A stretch of DNA of 64,000 nt from assembly GCA_963731585.1 (NCBI GenBank), contig CAVSWC010000013.1, positions 188,003 to 252,002 of the forward strand, written 5' to 3'. Origin of the DNA: an uncultured Alphaproteobacteria bacterium (GTDB lineage Bacteria > Pseudomonadota > Alphaproteobacteria > Rhizobiales > Xanthobacteraceae). The translations under genes and the position numbers were made by a program. This document shows, piece by piece, positions 23,486 to 63,360 of the stretch. The first letter of the stretch is position 1. Each line of letters opens with the position of its first letter. The notes below the pieces were generated by a model. It did no database searches. It was given only the letters and a program-made list of their open reading frames with translations, and was not told the origin of the DNA.

Positions 23486-23690
23486 GGCAACTTACTTTTC
23501 TGGCCCGGCGAATCATTTCGCTTTCTGTCACAGCTGGTGGTTCAGGCGTCAAGCGCTGTGGGCTTGAGTTGATCTACCGCGTCTTCGACGCAAGCGCGCG
23601 ATCAGCAAAAATGGGTACTGGTTTACGAAAAGCAATCAAGCTTGCGCAGATTGCGCAAACTTATCCGCGGTTCGCGCGCTAAAGCCCCCA

Positions 23691-23730
23691 CCTTACCCTC
23701 CCCCGCAAGCGGGGGAGGGTAAGGGAGGGG
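23691..23730. repeat. Family A-like palindromic hairpin (single module)
   Basis: CCTTACCCTCCCCCGC-AA-GCGGGGGAGGGTAAGG, followed by GAGGGG. Confidence 0.7.
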
Positions 23731-23781
23731 AAATCGGCGAACCGGCTCCCAGTTCGCCGGATCATACGCTATGCTCGCAGG

Positions 23782-30352: not shown

Positions 30353-32563
<2,211 letters not shown>

Positions 32564-33057: not shown

Positions 33058-33097
33058 ACGGAATAATGGGCAGCCGAAGGAAGGGGATAACGACGTG

Positions 33098-33212
33098 TCC
33101 TGTCCCTTCGCCGGCATGACCCGGATCAGGTTCGAAGGGTCACCGCGCTGCCTGTTGCGCCCGCAATGGGCCAGGCCGTCGGTATCTCAGCCTCCTGCGA
33201 GGCACCCCTGGG
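33098..33212 (-). promoter_or_regulatory. TPP (THI-box) riboswitch
   Basis: The minus strand reads CAGGGGTGCC...GGCTGAGATACCG...ACCCTTCGAACCTGATCCGGGTCATGCCGGCGAAGGGACAGG. This matches the conserved GGGGTGC / CTGAGA / ACCTGATCNGG-NTNATGCC-GCG-AGGGA cores, upstream of thiC. Confidence 0.88.
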
Positions 33213-33431
33213 AACGGGGCTAATGTAGTCCCGTGGCGGGGGGTGTCAACGCAAGTTCTCCGTGCACGGCTCGGTTTCGTCGGCGGGCTTGCGTATCCCG
33301 GGCGCGGCGCAGCATGTCAATGCTGCGACGCAGACCCGGGACCGTTCCAATCCGTGGTGGTCCCGGATCAGCGGTGCACCGTTACACGCTGCACCGCATC
33401 CGGGACACGCGTGCCGCGCATCGCTGCGACG

Positions 33432-47804: not shown

Positions 47805-48831
47805 ATGGGCCGCCCGTTTAATGAGTTTGCGATGTCGCAACAGTCCGATCTGGCTTTCACCACTTTGAACGGCGTCCTCAAGGCCGCCGGGGAGGGCACC
47901 CGGCTGCGCATTCTCGCGCTCCTGGCCGAGGCCGAACTGACGGTTTCCGACCTTACCGAGATTTTGCGCCAGTCGCAGCCGCGCATCTCCCGCCATCTGA
48001 AACTGCTGAGCGAAGCGGGGCTGGTCGAGCGCTTCCGCGAGGGCTCCTGGGCCTTCTTCCGGATCGCCGAGCAGGGCGCCGGCGCGGAAGTGATGCGCGC
48101 TTTGCTGGCGCGGCTCGCACCGGAGGACCCGACGGTGGCGCGGGACCGCGAACGCCTGACGATGGTACGCGCCGCCCGCGCGGCCGCCGCGCAGGCCTAT
48201 TTCCGCAGCCACGCCGCGGAGTGGGACCGCATCCGCAAGCTGCATGTGGCTGACGCCGCGGTTGAGGAAGCGATCAAGGCCGCGGTCGCCGACCGGCCTG
48301 TGGAAGCGCTGCTCGATCTCGGCACCGGCACCGGCCGCATGCTGGAATTGTTCGGCCCCGACATCGCGCGCGGCGTCGGGCTCGATCTTTCGCTCGACAT
48401 GCTGGCGCTGGCGCGCGCGCGGCTTGATCGCGCCGGCCTGCGCCATTGCACCGTGCGCCAAGGCGATATCTACGATCTCGAACTGCCGAAGAACTCCTTC
48501 GATCTCGTGATCGTGCATCAGGTGCTGCATTTCCTTGACGACGGCGCACGCGCCATCCGTGAGGCGGCGCGGGTCTTGCGCCCCGGGCGGGCGGCTGTTG
48601 GTGGTGGATTTCGCGCCGCATGACCTTGAGTTTCTGCGCGACCAGCATGCCCATCGCCGCCTCGGCTTCGCCCCGGAAGCGGTGACGCAGTGGCTGGAAG
48701 CTGCCGGGCTTGATTCCGTTCTGCATCGCACGCTTTCGCCGGAGCCCGGCACCGACGGCAAGATCGCGGTCTCGCTCTGGCTCGCGCGCGACCCGCGCAT
48801 CGCGCTCGCTTCCTCGCGCGAGGTGGCGTGA
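47805..48831 (+). pseudogene. sahR: ArsR-type wHTH fused to SAM-methyltransferase-like domain (SahR-like methionine-cycle regulator; one frame shift as sequenced)
   Basis: The HTH is RLRILALLAEAELTVSDLTEILRQSQPRISRHLKLLSEAGLVERFREGSWAFFR. The MTase fold is LLDLGTGTGRMLELF...LRPGGRLLVVDFAPHD, with the shift near 48590. The gene sits directly upstream of metF, and its stop overlaps the metF start. Confidence 0.75.
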
Positions 48832-49798
48832 TGCCGCAAGATCGCGCCAGCCGCATCGATACCCATGGCGAGCGCCGCATCGGCGTCTCGTTCGAATTCT
48901 TTCCGCCCAAAACCGAAGAGATGGAGAAGAATTTATGGGAGGCGATCACGCGGCTGGCGCCGCTTGCGCCCGATTTCGTCTCGGTGACCTATGGCGCCGG
49001 CGGCTCCACCCGCGAGCGCACCCATGCCACCGTCAAGCGCATCCTGGAGGAAACCAGCCTCACGCCGGCCGCGCATCTGACCTGCGTCGCCGCCACCCGC
49101 ACGGAAGTGGATCAGGTGATCAGCAATTATTGCGCGGTCGGCGTGCGCCATATCGTGGCGTTGCGCGGCGATCCGACCAGCGGCGTCGGGGCGCATTACA
49201 CGCCGCATCCCGGCGGCTATCTCAACGCGGCCGACCTCGTCGGCGGCATCAAACGCAGCTGCGATGTGGAAGTCTCGGTCGCCGCCTATCCGGAAAAACA
49301 TCCCGATAGCCAGACGGTCGATGCCGACATCGACATGCTGAAGGCCAAGGTGGAGGCCGGCGCGACCCGCGCCATCACGCAATTCTTCTTCGAGAATGAT
49401 CTGTACTTCCGCTATCTCGACCGCGTGCGCGCGCGCGGCATCGATGTGCCGGTGGTGCCAGGCATCCTGCCGGTGCAGAATTTCAAACAGGCCAAGAGTT
49501 TCGCCGAACGCACCGGCGCCTCGGTGCCGGCCTGGCTGGCGCGAGCGCTTCGAAGGACCTCGACGACGATCCCGCCACCCGCAAGCTGATCGCCGCCGCG
49601 GTCGCCGCCGAGCAGGTGGTCGATCTGGTTGATCGCGGCGTCACCAATTTCCACTTCTACACCATGAACCGCGCCGACCTGGTCTACGCGGTGTGCCATT
49701 TGCTGGGGTTACGACCGGTGCCGCTGTTTCCCTCTCCCATAGGGAGAGGGTGCCCGAGCGAAGCTCGGGAGGGTGAGGGGTTATGGCGTCCGTTGTGA
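48828..49798 (+). pseudogene. metF: 5,10-methylenetetrahydrofolate reductase (one frame shift as sequenced; 3' end reads into a repeat)
   Basis: IGVSFEFFPPKTEEMEKNLWEAITRLAPLAPDFVSVTYGAGGSTRERTH...AHLTCV...HIVALRGDP...ITQFFFENDLYFRYLDRVRARGIDVPVVPGILPV. After a shift near 49545 it continues ERFEGLDDDPATRKLIAAAVAAEQVVDLVDRGVTNFHFYTMNRADLVYAVCHLLGLRP. Confidence 0.9.
49729..49782. repeat. Family A module (hairpin, linker, GGGTGAGGGGTT)
   Basis: CCCTCTCCC-ATA-GGGAGAGGG TGCCCGAGCGAAGCTCGGGAG GGTGAGGGGTT. Confidence 0.85.
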
Positions 49799-50118
49799 AA
49801 AAAGCCAGGCGGCTACGTCAGGATCAAACAGATGCCGAGCGAAAGCTTTGGTTTCAACTGCGCGATCGGCGTCTTGCGGACCTGAAGTTTAGACGGCAGA
49901 TGCCGCTCGGAGGCTTCATCGTCGATTTCTGCTGCGAGGAAGCGCATCTCATCGTTGAAGTCGATGGCGGGCAACACAACGAAAACGAACGAGACGTGGC
50001 GCGGACCAGGGGGCTGGAAGCGATGGGATATCTGGTGCTGCGCTTCTGAAATCATGACGTGTTGCAAAACATCGACGGTGTTCTCGAAACGATAGTCGGT
50101 ACGACAAAACAACAAAGC
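49783..50118 (+). pseudogene. DUF559 (Vsr-like) endonuclease-domain protein with an in-frame TGA at the conserved Trp position
   Basis: MASVVKKARRLRQDQTDAERKLWFQLRDRRLADLKFRRQMPLGGFIVDFCCEEAHLIVEVDGGQHNENERD...[26 protein letters not shown]. The family consensus at that point is RFWNN-VL. Confidence 0.75.
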
Positions 50119-50122
50119 GCGG

Positions 50123-50244
50123 AACCCCCTCACCCCATCCCTCTCCCCACAGGGGAGAGGGAGAACAGCGCCGCAGCGCCAACCGATACTTCCCTCTCCC
50201 ATAGGAAGAGCGTGCCTGAGCGAAGCTCTGGCGGGTGAGGGGTT
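50123..50244. repeat. Family A modules (one inverted, one direct)
   Basis: AACCCCCTCACC-CCAT-CCCTCTCCCC-ACA-GGGGAGAGGG, then CCCTCTCCC-ATA-GGAAGAGCG TGCCTGAGCGAAGCTCTGGCG GGTGAGGGGTT. Confidence 0.85.
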
Positions 50245-50254
50245 ATTGAGTGAG

Positions 50255-53200
50255 ATGTCAGTGACAAGAATCGCCAAAAATTCCCCCGTCGCATCCGCCA
50301 TCCGCCGCGCGGCGGCCGAGCGCATCCTGGTGCTCGACGGCGCCATGGGCACCATGATCCAGGCGCTGCGGCTCGACGAGGCCGGTTATCGCGGCGCGCG
50401 CTTTGCGGATTGGACGCGCGACGTGCGCGGCAACAACGACCTGTTGATCCTCAGCCAGCCGACCGCGATCCGCGACATCCATCTCGCTTACTTCCTGGCC
50501 GGCGCCGACATCGTCGAAACCAACACCTTTTCCTCCACCAGCATCGCCCAGGCCGATTACGGCATGCAGGCGCTGGCCTATGAGCTGAACGTCGAAGGCG
50601 CGAAGCTGGCCAAGGATGCCGCGCGCCTGGCCGAGGATAAGGACGGCAAGCCGCGCTTCGTCGCCGGCGCGCTCGGTCCGACCAACCGCACCGCATCGAT
50701 CTCGCCCGACGTCGGCAACCCCGGCTTTCGCGCCACCACCTTCGACGATCTGCGCGCGGCTTATGGCGAGCAGGTGAGGGGATTGCTCGACGGCGGCGTC
50801 GACATCCTGCTGATCGAAACCATTTTCGACACGCTCAACGCCAAGGCGGCGATCTATGCCATCGCCGAGATCACCGAAGAGCGCGGCATCGACGTGCCGC
50901 TGATGATTTCCGGCACCATCACCGATCTTTCCGGCCGCCTGCTGTCGGGCCAGACGCCGGAAGCCTTCTGGAATTCCGTGCGCCATGCCGCGCCGCTGTC
51001 GATCGGGCTCAATTGCGCGCTCGGCGCCAAGGAGATGCGCGCGCATATCGACGAGCTCGGCCGCGTGGCCGATACGCTGGTCTGCGCCTATCCGAACGCC
51101 GGACTGCCGAACGAATTCGGCCAATATGACGAGACGCCGGAACACACGGCGCGGCTGATGGGCGAATTCGCCTCATCCGGCCTGGTCAATATCGTGGGTG
51201 GCTGCTGCGGCACGACGCCGGCGCATATCCGTGCGCTGGCCGAGGCGGTCGCCGGCAAGGCGCCCCGCCCAATTCCGGAAATCCCGCGCATGCTGCGGCT
51301 GTCCGGCCTCGAGCCCTTCACGCTCACGCCGGAAATCCCTTTCGTCAACGTGGGCGAGCGCACCAACGTCACCGGCTCCGCGCGTTTCCGCAAGCTGATC
51401 ACCGATGGCGATTTCCCCGCCGCGCTCGATGTGGCGCGCGAGCAGGTGGACAATGGCGCGCAGATCATCGACGTCAACATGGACGAAGGCCTGCTGGATT
51501 CGCAGGAGGCGATGGTCAACTTTCTGCATCTCGTCGCCTCCGAGCCGGACATCACCAAGGTGCCGGTGATGGTGGACTCTTCGAAGTTCCCCATCATCGA
51601 GGCCGGGTTGAAATGCATCCAGGGCAAGCCGGTGGTGAATTCAATCTCGCTGAAGGAAGGCGAGGCGGCTTTCATCGATCACGCCAAGATCGTGCGCCGG
51701 CATGGCGCCGCGGTGGTGGTGATGGCCTTCGACGAGCAGGGCCAGGCCGATACGCTGGCGCGCCGCACCGGCATCTGCCAGCGCGCCTACGACATCCTGG
51801 TCAATCAAGTCGGCTTCCCGCCGGAAGACATCATCTTCGATCCCAACATCTTCCCGGTCGCCACCGGCCTGGAAGAGCACAACAATTACGGCATCGATTA
51901 TATCGAGGCGACGCGCTGGATCCGAAAGAACCTGCCGCACGCGCATGTCTCCGGCGGCGTGTCGAACCTTTCCTTCTCGTTCCGCGGCAACGAGCCGGTG
52001 CGCGAGGCGATGCATTCGGTCTTCCTCTATCACGCCATCAAGGCCGGGATGGACATGGGCATCGTCAATGCCGGGCAGATGATCGTCTATGACGACATCG
52101 AGCCGGAATTGCGCGAAGCGGTGGAAGACGTGGTGCTCAATCGCCGCGCCGACGCATCCGAGCGGCTGCTGGCGCTGGCCGAGCGCTACCGCGGCCAGAC
52201 CCGCGAGCAGAAGGAAGCCGATCTCGCCTGGCGCGGCTGGCCGGTGGAGCAGCGGCTGTCGCATGCGCTGGTGCACGGCATCACCGAATTCATCGAAACC
52301 GACACCGAGGAGGCGCGCAAGAAAGCCGAGCGCCCGCTGCACGTGATCGAAGGCCCGCTGATGGACGGCATGAACGTCGTCGGCGACCTGTTCGGCTCCG
52401 GCAAGATGTTCCTGCCGCAGGTGGTGAAGTCGGCGCGCGTGATGAAGCAGGCGGTGGCTTACCTGCTTCCCTTCATGGAGGAGGAGAAGCGGCTCAGCGG
52501 CGCCACGCAGTCAAATTCCGCCGGCAAGATCGTGATGGCCACGGTGAAGGGCGACGTGCACGATATCGGCAAGAACATCGTCGGCGTCGTGCTCCAGTGC
52601 AACAATTACGAGGTGGTCGATCTCGGGGTGATGGTGCCGGCGGCGAAGATCCTGGAAACCGCGATCGCGGAGAAGGCCGATCTGATCGGCCTTTCCGGCC
52701 TGATCACCCCCTCGCTCGACGAGATGGTGCATGTCGCTTCCGAAATGGAGCGGCAAGGCTTTGAGCTGCCGCTGCTGATTGGCGGCGCCACCACCAGCCG
52801 CGTGCATACCGCGGTGAAGATCCATCCGCACTACAAGCGCGGGCAGACGGTCTATGTGAACGATGCCAGCCGCGCGGTCGGCGTGGCGCAGGCGCTGCTC
52901 TCGCGCGAGGCGAAGAACGATTACATCACCGATATCCGCGCCGAATACGCCAAGATCGCCGCCGCGCATGCGCGCGCGCAGGCCGACAAGCAGCGGCTGT
53001 CGCTTGCCGCCGCGCGCGCCAATGCGCTCAAGCTCGACTGGCAGGCGCATAAGCCAGTGAAGCCGAGCTTCATCGGCACAAAGGTGCTGGAAGATTATCC
53101 GCTGGAAGAACTGGTTCCCTATATCGACTGGACGCCGTTCTTCCAGACCTGGGAGCTGTCCGGAAAATTTCCCGCCATCCTGGAAGATCCGAAATTCGGC

Positions 53201-53993
53201 CCGGCCGCACGGCCGCTCTACGAAGACGCGCGCAAGATGCTGGACCAGATCATCGCGGAGAAATGGTTCCGCGCCGGCGGCGTGATCGGCTTCTGGCCGG
53301 CCAACGCCGAGGGCGAAGATATTTTGCTCTATGGCGATGAGGCGCGCAAAACACCGATCGCCACGCTGCATACCCTGCGCCAGCAACTCAGCAAGCGCGA
53401 AGGCCGCTACAACGAAGCGCTGTCGGATTTCATCGCGCCGCGCGTCTCGGGCGTGCCGGATTATGTCGGCGCCTTCGCGGTCACCGCCGGCGTCGGCGAA
53501 GACGAAATCGCCGACCGCTTCAAGCTGAAGAACGACGACTATTCCGCCATCCTGGTGAAGGCGCTGGCCGACCGGCTGGCGGAGGCCTTCGCCGAGCGGC
53601 TGCATCAGCGCGTGCGCACGGAATTCTGGGGCTATGCGCCGGACGAGATCCTTGAGCACGCAAGAGCTGATCGAGGAAAAGTATCAGGGCATCCGCCCGG
53701 CGCCCGGCTATCCGGCGCAGCCCGAGCACACCGAGAAAGCGACCATCTTCAAGCTGCTGCCGGCGGACAAGGTCGGCTTGCAGCTGACGGAAAGCTTCGC
53801 GATGTGGCCGGGCGCCGCGGTGAGCGGGCTCTATTTCAGCCATCCGCAGAGCCATTATTTCGGCGTCGGCAAGATCGAGCGCGATCAGGTCGAGGACTAC
53901 GCCCGCCGCAAGGGCTGGAGCCTGCAGGAAGCCGAGCGCTGGCTGGCGCCGATCCTCAACTACGATCCGAAGCCGGTCGAGGCGGTGGCGTAG
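50255..53993 (+). pseudogene. metH: Cobalamin-dependent methionine synthase (one frame shift as sequenced)
   Basis: [13 protein letters not shown] (Hcy domain), [26 protein letters not shown] (pterin-binding), the B12 motif [15 protein letters not shown], and the AdoMet-activation domain. After a shift near 53650 it continues [29 protein letters not shown]...[21 protein letters not shown]. Confidence 0.92.
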
Positions 53994-54040
53994 ATTTCTC
54001 CCGCCGGTATCCACTCGTTATGTCCCAGCACAACTTCTCG

Positions 54041-61395: not shown

Positions 61396-61544
61396 GCCCT
61401 CCACCCGCGGAGCGAAGCGAAGTGGCGGGGAGGGGTTGGGGGTGGGGGGCGCTTTTCTTGGAAGTCCCCCCACCCCGGCGCGCCGCTGCCGCGCCGCGCC
61501 GACCCTCCCCGCCACTCGCAAGGGCTCGTGGGAGGAGGGTGGAG
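61396..61544. repeat. Family A two-module palindromic element inside the oxoprolinase gene (in frame, no stop)
   Basis: CCCTCCACCCGC...GCGGGGAGGGGTT GGGGGTGGGGGG, a 16-nt spacer, CCCCCCACCCC ... CCCTCCCCGCC...GGGAGGAGGG. It is translated as STLLPRALASGGEGRRGAAAARRGGGTSKKSAPHPQPLPATSLRSAGGG. Confidence 0.85.
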
Positions 61545-63208: not shown

Positions 63209-63360
63209 GTTTCCCTCGCCCCGCTTGCGGGGAGCGGGTGGCCGAGCTTGCGGAGCGCGAGTCGGGTGAGGGGGCGTCTCCACGAGCTTGGCAGCGTCTG
63301 ACAGCTCGCCCCTCGACGCTCCGACCCTCTCCCCGTGAAGAACGGGGAGAGGGAGAAGAG
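63209..63360. repeat. Family A two-module palindromic element inside the oxoprolinase gene (HyuA part)
   Basis: CCCTCGCCCCGC-TT-GCGGGGAGCGGG, linker, GGGTGAGGGGG, a spacer of about 34 nt, CCCCTCGACGCTCCGA, then CCCTCTCCCC-GTGAAGAAC-GGGGAGAGGG. Confidence 0.85.

Follow-up and report, generated by a model that had tools for sequence, protein, structure and literature searches.

The spacer between metF and metH in the stretch of alphaproteobacterial DNA analyzed here (64 kb of contig CAVSWC010000013.1 from an uncultured member of the Xanthobacteraceae; hereafter, the window) holds a small YcjD-type gene of the DUF559 family, which lies between inverted copies of a structured repeat. Gene and repeats recur as a unit, with the repeats in a fixed orientation, across a wide range of bacterial phyla, and repeat copies dispersed elsewhere in a genome match those that flank the DUF559 gene of the same genome. 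Taking these findings together, we propose, at roughly even odds (a probability of about 0.5), that a YcjD-type DUF559 gene situated between inverted copies of the BoxC/PIT/TMECO repeat constitutes a conserved partnership working in the manner of the REPIN-RAYT systems. The repeat itself is already known; what appears to be new is its pairing with DUF559.

The gene and the modules around it, all of which had been recognized at these positions in the initial annotation made from the letters of the window, are as follows.

49783 to 50238, plus strand: open reading frame (ORF) for a DUF559/Vsr-like PD-(D/E)XK nuclease, with the domain at 49783-50118 matching PF04480
49730 to 49782, plus strand: left triplex-motif (TM) module, ending directly at the ATG (49783)
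50123 to 50161, minus strand: right TM module, the inverse arrangement, AACCCCCTCACCCC-AT-CCCTCTCCCC-ACA-GGGGAGAGGG
50192 to 50244, plus strand: second left-type TM module, its hairpin degenerate, immediately before the metH start

With its single in-frame TGA read as tryptophan, the translation of 49783-50118 matches PF04480 (Pfam DUF559) over residues 5-105 (E 2.1e-42), and the alignment covers profile positions 4-105 of 109, which amounts to a whole-domain match. The protein also matches PDB entry 3HRL (E 6e-26), the solved “endonuclease-like protein” of Neisseria gonorrhoeae, and its fold can be regarded as settled because this solved homolog exists. It is the one DUF559 gene in the window, is not linked to a cytosine methyltransferase and, as had been remarked earlier, is lower in GC content (~0.55-0.57) than metF and metH (0.65-0.71). 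The left module begins with a perfect hairpin at 49730-49750 (pyrimidine arm CCCTCTCCC, loop ATA, purine arm GGGAGAGGG), continues with a self-complementary linker of 21 nt that contains the hairpin CCCGAGC-GAA-GCTCGGG (49753-49769), and ends in the G-box GGTGAGGGG (49772-49780) followed by TT, with the ATG 2 nt on. Folded as single-stranded DNA, it forms two hairpins and leaves the G-box unpaired (z = -5.4), and it is present likewise in the orthologs. The second left-type module is part of a direct repeat of 76 nt (50183-50258 versus 49721-49796, 83% identical), and the same extra copy is carried by another locus of our sample, L081. The hairpin pattern of the left module occurs three times in the window against an expectation of 0.00, and GGTGAGGGG occurs six times against an expectation of 0.40.

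These modules do not represent an undescribed repeat family; they and the ORF-less pairs found elsewhere in the window are, on sequence criteria, copies of BoxC, also called the PIT element or the TMECO intrastrand triplex motif, whose published consensus is CCCTCNCCC-N3-6-GGGNGAGGG-N3-GGGNGAGGG (Holder et al. 2015, PMC4666352). The right module (50126-50161, minus strand) fits this consensus exactly as CCCTCTCCCC-TGT-GGGGAGAGGG-ATG-GGGTGAGGGG, the left module fits it apart from loop 2, the place of the 21-nt hairpin, and in both the third block mirrors the purine arm perfectly. Since the long linkers are self-closing hairpins, they would not be expected to disturb a triplex fold. The published account reports 23 copies in Escherichia coli K-12, five as inverted pairs, and 3610 copies across 262 proteobacterial genomes, and describes the motif as intergenic, multi-copy and often arranged in inverted pairs (PMC4666352). 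As single-stranded DNA the motif forms a stable purine-motif triplex in vitro, established by circular dichroism and nuclear magnetic resonance for the E. coli motif only, and a triplex of this kind cannot form in RNA; further, motif loci are associated with instability, and PIT elements stall DNA polymerase in vitro and have neither promoter nor terminator activity (PMC4666352). No transposase, integrase or mobility gene is reported near the motif in that paper, which mentions neither an endonuclease nor DUF559 nor ycjD. The repeat had been catalogued earlier by Bachellier et al. in the 1990s and by Hoyne et al. in 2000, as these are cited in PMC4666352.

The mirror relation extends to the other loci of our sample. 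Across them, the G-box mirrors its purine arm at 6.90 of 9 positions, versus 6.45 +/- 0.045 after permutation, and variants of arm and box covary (GGGAGAAGG with GGATGAGGG, AGGGAAGGG with GGGATGGGT, GCGGGGGAA with ATGGGGGCG). Judged from these alignments, box and purine arm obey the mirror rule (G*G, A*A or T*A triads) that a purine-motif triplex imposes, and their covariation points to a DNA triplex rather than an RNA element. An Rfam scan of the whole window at the gathering threshold returned only a thiamine pyrophosphate (TPP) riboswitch, and a permissive scan of 49650-50300 returned chance hits only; hence, the modules are not explained by any known RNA family.

The association of gene and repeat was quantified in loci from a wide range of bacteria. 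A genome scan with the window protein gave 79 DUF559 loci at 45-69% identity, and 82 loci were analyzed for flanking motifs; they come from Alpha-, Beta-, Gamma- and Deltaproteobacteria, Planctomycetes, Chloroflexi, Nitrospirae, Verrucomicrobia, Myxococcota and other groups. Motif counts rest on the strict consensus or on a finder that scores the mirror rule, and densities on the published consensus with at most one mismatch per block; a relaxed regular expression for degenerate modules matched shuffled sequence as often as real sequence and was rejected. The density is 2.6 motifs per kb at up to 200 nt from DUF559 and 0.057 per kb at more than 500 nt, so that the enrichment proposed as a check in the initial annotation is borne out. 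Eighty control metH loci gave 0.017 per kb, and four of the six motifs in them abut incidental DUF559 genes. Motif orientation is 38 (+) to 4 (-) upstream of the gene and 42 (-) to 10 (+) downstream, with the box usually facing the gene, and the median distance between motif and gene is 25 nt upstream and 30 nt downstream. Comparison of the upstream flank with the reverse-complemented downstream flank reveals terminal inverted repeats well above shuffles in 55 of the 82 loci. Even the loops of the left and right copies are reverse complements of each other (e.g., GCAAGC/GCTTGC), and left-right identity is 0.838 within a locus versus 0.752 +/- 0.009 between loci, a value of 0.838 being reached by none of 1000 permutations. 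As part of the C-terminal tails, the motif is translated in three different frames (PLPxGERE, PSPxxGEG, LSRxRERE). The use of all three frames indicates that the motif is conserved as DNA and not as peptide.

Individual lineages vary this plan. The variant with a linker hairpin (21-nt loop 2) is found in Shinella and in L033, L049, L066 and L072; in Shinella it ends 2 nt before the ATG, as in the window, and in the window, L081 and Shinella alike the box GAGGGG is separated from the ATG by 2 nt. In N. gonorrhoeae a single motif precedes the DUF559 gene and a tandem array of pairs follows it; in the locus of the 3HRL gene (L164, 1990-2690), this array has a period of ~281 nt and three units, made up of inverted pairs of two subtypes. 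DUF559 loci of Deinococcus and of a Synechocystis plasmid have motifs too, in box-out orientation. Legionellaceae loci (L023, L041) have terminal inverted repeats of ~90-130 nt, in which the hairpin loop has grown to 37-48 nt while arms and box are kept. Three Pseudomonas loci (L009, L011, L019) have flanks that are 84-87% identical around a DUF559 segment that is 68-79% identical, and the unit there may either evolve faster than its neighbors or have been replaced in place. JGI lists some DUF559 products (L026, L036, P0010, P0015, P0038, P0048, P0111) as “lysyl-tRNA synthetase class 2”; the DUF559 frame of Lysobacter extends into a neighboring EpmA/GenX-like gene, a possible reason for this misannotation.

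The link is not confined to the motifs that border the gene. Dispersed motifs, at least 400 nt away, resemble the flanking motifs of their own locus (0.857) more than those of other loci (0.709), and the own-locus flanking motif ranks first of 82 for 13 of the 40 comparisons. A motif pair 10 kb from the Shinella gene has the same lineage-specific variant as the flanking copies. We also assembled a motif-centered sample of 138 exact motifs on 120 viral contigs (1.09 Mb), where all three DUF559 genes are motif-flanked and where no recurrent neighbor family or transposase was found near the motifs.

The window itself provides such dispersed copies.

32430 to 32542, no strand assigned: ORF-less inverted TM pair in (+,-) order, near the thiC TPP riboswitch
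61397 to 61539, no strand assigned: ORF-less inverted pair of TMs, sub-variant CCCTCC.../GGGGTGGGG
63213 to 63359, no strand assigned: ORF-less inverted TM pair with long linkers
23684 to 23731, no strand assigned: single hairpin CCCTCCCCCGCAAGCGGGGGAGGG between two G-boxes, giving a TM on either strand

The three ORF-less pairs have the layout hairpin-linker-box ... box-linker-hairpin that had been described for them, with only 16-35 nt separating the boxes, and the census of the window comes to four (+,-) pairs, one two-sided single hairpin and one extra copy. Two motif sub-variants are present, CCCTCTCCC/GGGTGAGGGG and CCCTCC/GGGGTGGGG; a common variant of the motif with a G-A mismatch is CCCTCGCCCC/GGGGAGAGGG. 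The elements at 23684-23731 and 61397-61539 are both of the CCCTCC/GGGGTGGGG subtype, for which a DUF559 gene of its own might exist elsewhere in the genome. The TPP riboswitch (Rfam RF00059, 62 bits; 33085-33219, minus strand) adjoins the pair at 32430-32542. The idea that the ORF-less pairs are internal-deletion derivatives of the DUF559 unit found no support: their inner ends match the terminal inverted repeat only, and the resemblance of those ends to the ends of the ORF (ATGG..., ...GGAACCCCC) is explained by that repeat, GGGGTGAGGGGGTTC/GAACCCCCTCACCCC.

Escherichia coli offers a view of gene and repeat within one species. K-12 has a single DUF559 gene, ycjD, whose stop codon is overlaid by a degenerate pyrimidine arm and hairpin (tail ...SPSP), and TMECO #9 lies ~170 nt downstream. 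Between these two motifs, K-12 (locus L083; NC_000913.3, 1351204-1351480) has a direct duplicate of ~43 nt of the ycjD 3' end (GGAGACGGTGCTGGAGAATATTC...), which is reminiscent of the duplicated left module of the window. Enterobacter asburiae shows, at a different locus, the order gene-TM(-)-TM(+) that is also seen in E. coli and in the window. Of 5426 complete E. coli genomes, 3377 have the gene; the ~38% without it have the efflux operon eefRABCD between sapF and fabI instead, so that the two are alternative occupants of one site, and ycjD alternates there with this operon and not with an empty motif pair. It marks phylogroups A, B1 and C together with sequence types ST69 and ST182, and at least two independent replacements between ycjD and eefRABCD have been inferred (PMC12817139). 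In 60 evenly spaced genomes, the median number of motif places is 19 (range 8-29) for the 37 that have ycjD and 3 (range 1-22) for the 23 that do not (Mann-Whitney p 4e-9). Among the other enterobacteria, Salmonella is reported to be without TMECO and Enterobacter to have very many copies (PMC4666352). The best 120 YcjD homologs include named ones from Escherichia, Shigella, Enterobacter, Kluyvera, Klebsiella and others and none named as Salmonella, which is not proof of its absence there; the contrast between Enterobacter and Salmonella is consistent with co-occurrence of gene and motif.

The surroundings of the window gene bear on the age of the unit.

48828 to 49798, plus strand: metF (methylenetetrahydrofolate reductase, MTHFR), the upstream neighbor, whose frame passes through the left module
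50255 to 54000, plus strand: metH, the downstream neighbor, its end approximate owing to a C-terminal frameshift

The DUF559 frame is not intact in the window, since the in-frame TGA (50047-50049) stands at the site of a conserved tryptophan (RFWN; LRFWNxD in homologs); past the domain the frame is open to 50238, and the C-terminal tail that results is the right module translated. The TGA may be a real inactivation or a sequencing or assembly error. Both neighbors are frameshifted as well, metF by a 1-nt insertion near 49585 and metH by a frame change near 53660, towards its C-terminus, either through assembly indel errors or through decay of the locus; hence, the TGA may be a sequencing error and not the mark of a true pseudogene. 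Orthologs of the window gene (58-87% identity) have intact frames. Relatives of its product come from Xanthobacteraceae, Rhodoplanes and Pseudolabrys, and the best homologs (63-87% identity) nearly all end in (E)PPHPxPLPxGERE, the translated right module, with variable residues that coincide with linker and loop. The order metF-DUF559-metH is kept in Rhodoplanes sp. Z2-YC6860, in metagenome-assembled genomes of Xanthobacteraceae and in other assemblies, and it persists down to 58% protein identity, a divergence of family level. Between orthologs, pS is 0.67-0.85 (saturated) and pN 0.22-0.30; dN/dS, from those pairs with an estimable dS only, is ~0.07-0.17, and across the same distances the hairpin arms and the box are essentially invariant. 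On these comparisons, the window locus is an old resident under purifying selection and not a fresh insertion; the synteny to 58% identity and the low dN/dS together indicate that it is neither recently inserted nor active as an autonomous element. Presence and absence of the unit at related metF-metH loci, a comparison suggested in the initial annotation, do vary: among the 80 metagenomic control metH loci one, L085, has the full unit, and in many relatives (L084, L086, L092, L105, L106) metH comes next after metF, 0-90 nt away, and gene and modules are both missing; these empty spacers are too diverged for exact mapping of the junctions. The metF-metH spacer of a more distant relative (L147, 1189-1475) contains three motifs, a (-,+) pair and a degenerate one, and no DUF559 gene or remnant was found in it.

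How the gene came to lie between its repeats admits several explanations. The first reading of this DNA, an autonomous element with derivatives resembling miniature inverted-repeat transposable elements (MITEs), was right in that the DUF559 gene and its inverted modules form one unit and that the ORF-less pairs are members of one repeat family with these modules; activity, recency and derivation by deletion found no support. In its full form, this explanation makes the modules transposon ends, the DUF559 protein transposase-like, the ORF-less pairs MITEs and the window copy recent. It is in keeping with the compactness of the units, whose terminal inverted repeats delimit 393-690 bp and contain the start and stop codons, with the many different gene contexts across taxa and with the variable presence at metF-metH and at E. 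coli sapF-fabI. We nevertheless judge it quite improbable, because the metF-metH position is conserved to 58% identity while synonymous sites are saturated and dN/dS does not exceed ~0.17, and because none of 22 units bounded by terminal inverted repeats has a target-site duplication. Moreover, paralogs within one genome share only 68-78% DNA identity, with no near-identical pair, and for many DUF559 loci gene order is shared by different genera (Comamonadaceae, Pseudomonas, Nitrospirae, Planctomycetes). A survey of plasmid records found DUF559 homologs in 45 of 72,556, mostly chromids or mislabelled chromosomes; the copies occupy 48 places in these 45 complete replicons, mostly one each, and hardly any true plasmid has the gene. 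The evidence as a whole argues against recent mobility of the unit. A homing-endonuclease-like gene is the least improbable of the alternatives, though still unlikely: here the ORF-less pairs would be empty targets into the center of which DUF559 homed, the repeats being targets or homology arms. Vsr-like nucleases such as I-Bth0305I do act as homing endonucleases (PMC3239194; PMC3424549), the ORF-less pairs share the (+,-) orientation with 16-35 nt between boxes, no target-site duplications were found, and the Pseudomonas segment of 68% identity between flanks of 84-87% looks as it would after allele replacement. However, many unoccupied pairs coexist for long with a single intact gene, although conversion of such pairs is what one would predict of a functional homing endonuclease, lasting purifying selection at one locus misfits a cycle of invasion, decay and loss, and the motifs of Deinococcus and Synechocystis are box-out, the opposite orientation.

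Two further explanations dispense with spreading by the nuclease. DUF559 might be an ordinary mismatch or repair nuclease with no functional link to motifs that act as cis elements, such as ribosome-binding context, mRNA ends or insulators, or that merely accumulate in short spacers beside a small gene that is dispensable. The box GAGGGG, 2 nt before the ATG in three loci, could indeed serve as a ribosome-binding site, the motifs are intergenic everywhere, and the spacer has no promoter or terminator consensus (a scan of 49400-50400 found neither). This, too, strikes us as improbable: with far motifs confined to an assumed intergenic share of 12%, the density near DUF559 is by our estimate still ~5-fold higher, and passive accumulation does not account for the strict orientation, the left-right matching and the reverse-complementary loops, nor for an association that spans phyla while synonymous sites are saturated. 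A role in cis is countered by the lack of promoter or terminator activity in PIT elements (PMC4666352) and, for an RNA element, by the mirror-box covariation, which indicates a DNA triplex that is impossible in RNA (PMC4666352). Alternatively, the protein could be a guardian of the host, a protective helper that clears polymerase-blocking triplexes or hairpins and travels with the repeats with no spreading involved. The block to DNA polymerase in vitro and the instability of motif loci (PMC4666352) would give such a helper its work, and long-term purifying selection and vertical inheritance suit it; further, VsrA, a DUF559 protein, causes an SOS response in Caulobacter when it lacks its methylase partner (PMC12907096), which indicates that members of the family damage DNA in vivo. 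We regard this as the least probable account of all, since it leaves unexplained the exact place of the gene between a matched inverted pair of fixed orientation, and since E. coli lineages without ycjD have fewer motifs, not more, and tolerate them.

We therefore return to a partnership of DUF559 with BoxC/PIT/TMECO and suggest how it could operate. DUF559 would recognize the motif, most likely on transiently single-stranded, hairpin- or triplex-folded DNA during replication, and would nick or cleave at the folded motif. Host repair or recombination of the break might then copy, delete or homogenize motif pairs, and in this way one mostly vertically inherited nuclease gene could sustain dispersed nonautonomous pairs. 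In this more specific form, which we put forward tentatively and with less than even confidence, BoxC/PIT/TMECO would be a REPIN-like nonautonomous population maintained by a domesticated DUF559/YcjD nuclease that recognizes folded hairpin or triplex DNA.

Several points weigh against the partnership. Recognition and cleavage of the motif by DUF559, and what follows from them, are things that we infer, the association being what is directly observed. Hydrolytic PD-(D/E)XK nucleases are incapable of strand transfer, so any spread would have to rely on a conjectural step of host repair. The locus sample covers only the short YcjD-like clade caught by peptide patterns; 27 of its 82 loci have no clear terminal inverted repeat; the enterobacterial DUF559 genes have no upstream motif copy; and on the viral contigs 132 of the 138 motifs are far from any DUF559 gene, with 6 adjoining one. 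The correlation between ycjD and motif number in E. coli follows phylogroups and thus represents few independent events. It also has its exceptions: O157:H7 has ~12 motif places, one ycjD-negative strain has 22, and three genomes in which ycjD is present with a longer span, presumably an ST69/ST182-type allele, have only 8-12. Finally, dimethyl sulfate footprinting in vivo failed to reveal the triplex in E. coli (PMC4666352).

Comparison with known systems helps to place the unit. From BoxC/PIT/TMECO as published it takes the three-block consensus, the mirror G-box and the intergenic, multi-copy and often inversely paired occurrence; it differs in that the published repeat has no associated gene and in the 21-nt hairpin within loop 2 of the left module of the window. 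REPIN-RAYT systems, reportedly described by Nunvar in 2010, resemble it in that dispersed inverted pairs match the subtype flanking the gene and that target-site duplications are absent. In them, as here, a single-copy, vertically inherited nuclease gene lies between inverted structured repeats (PMC3116915; PMC5581495). The likeness is nonetheless one of analogy and not of membership, as the window protein is a Vsr-fold PD-(D/E)XK hydrolase whereas RAYT is an HUH/Y1 transposase, and as the repeat of the window is a hairpin with a mirror G-box whereas REP is a GTAG-tagged hairpin. I-Bth0305I and Vsr belong to the same VSR/DUF559/DUF2726 fold group (PMC3424549) and are likewise small stand-alone nucleases, but the window gene lies outside any intron, intein or conserved host gene and is flanked by a dispersed repeat. 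With MITEs and their parent insertion sequences (IS), and with IS200/IS605 elements, the unit shares terminal inverted repeats, subterminal hairpins and short ORF-less derivatives; unlike them, it has no DDE or Y1 transposase and no target-site duplication, it forms no multi-copy autonomous element, and its gene is old and syntenic. The combination of a single-copy, vertically inherited gene, a matched pair around it, dispersed pairs of the same subtype and the lack of target-site duplications thus makes the unit REPIN-RAYT-like and sets it apart from an IS with its MITEs.

To our knowledge, DUF559 is a very large family of thousands of homologs, E. coli YcjD among them, to which almost no function has been assigned. 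The initial annotation knew of no described link between DUF559 and a repeat family, and our literature search, to which subscription journals were mostly closed, likewise found none between DUF559 or YcjD and BoxC, PIT, TMECO or any other repeat. The repeat, for its part, has been catalogued since the 1990s with its origin unexplained, and DUF559 may be its partner: the two unknowns are tied together by the matched flanking pairs, by the match of repeats within the same genome and by the smaller number of repeats in E. coli without ycjD. If this is true, it would represent a second symbiosis of a nuclease with a repeat, long-lived, vertically inherited and mechanistically independent of REPIN-RAYT. 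It would also give DUF559 a function and make it a naturally occurring reader of non-B DNA, an idea that is directly testable in E. coli K-12.

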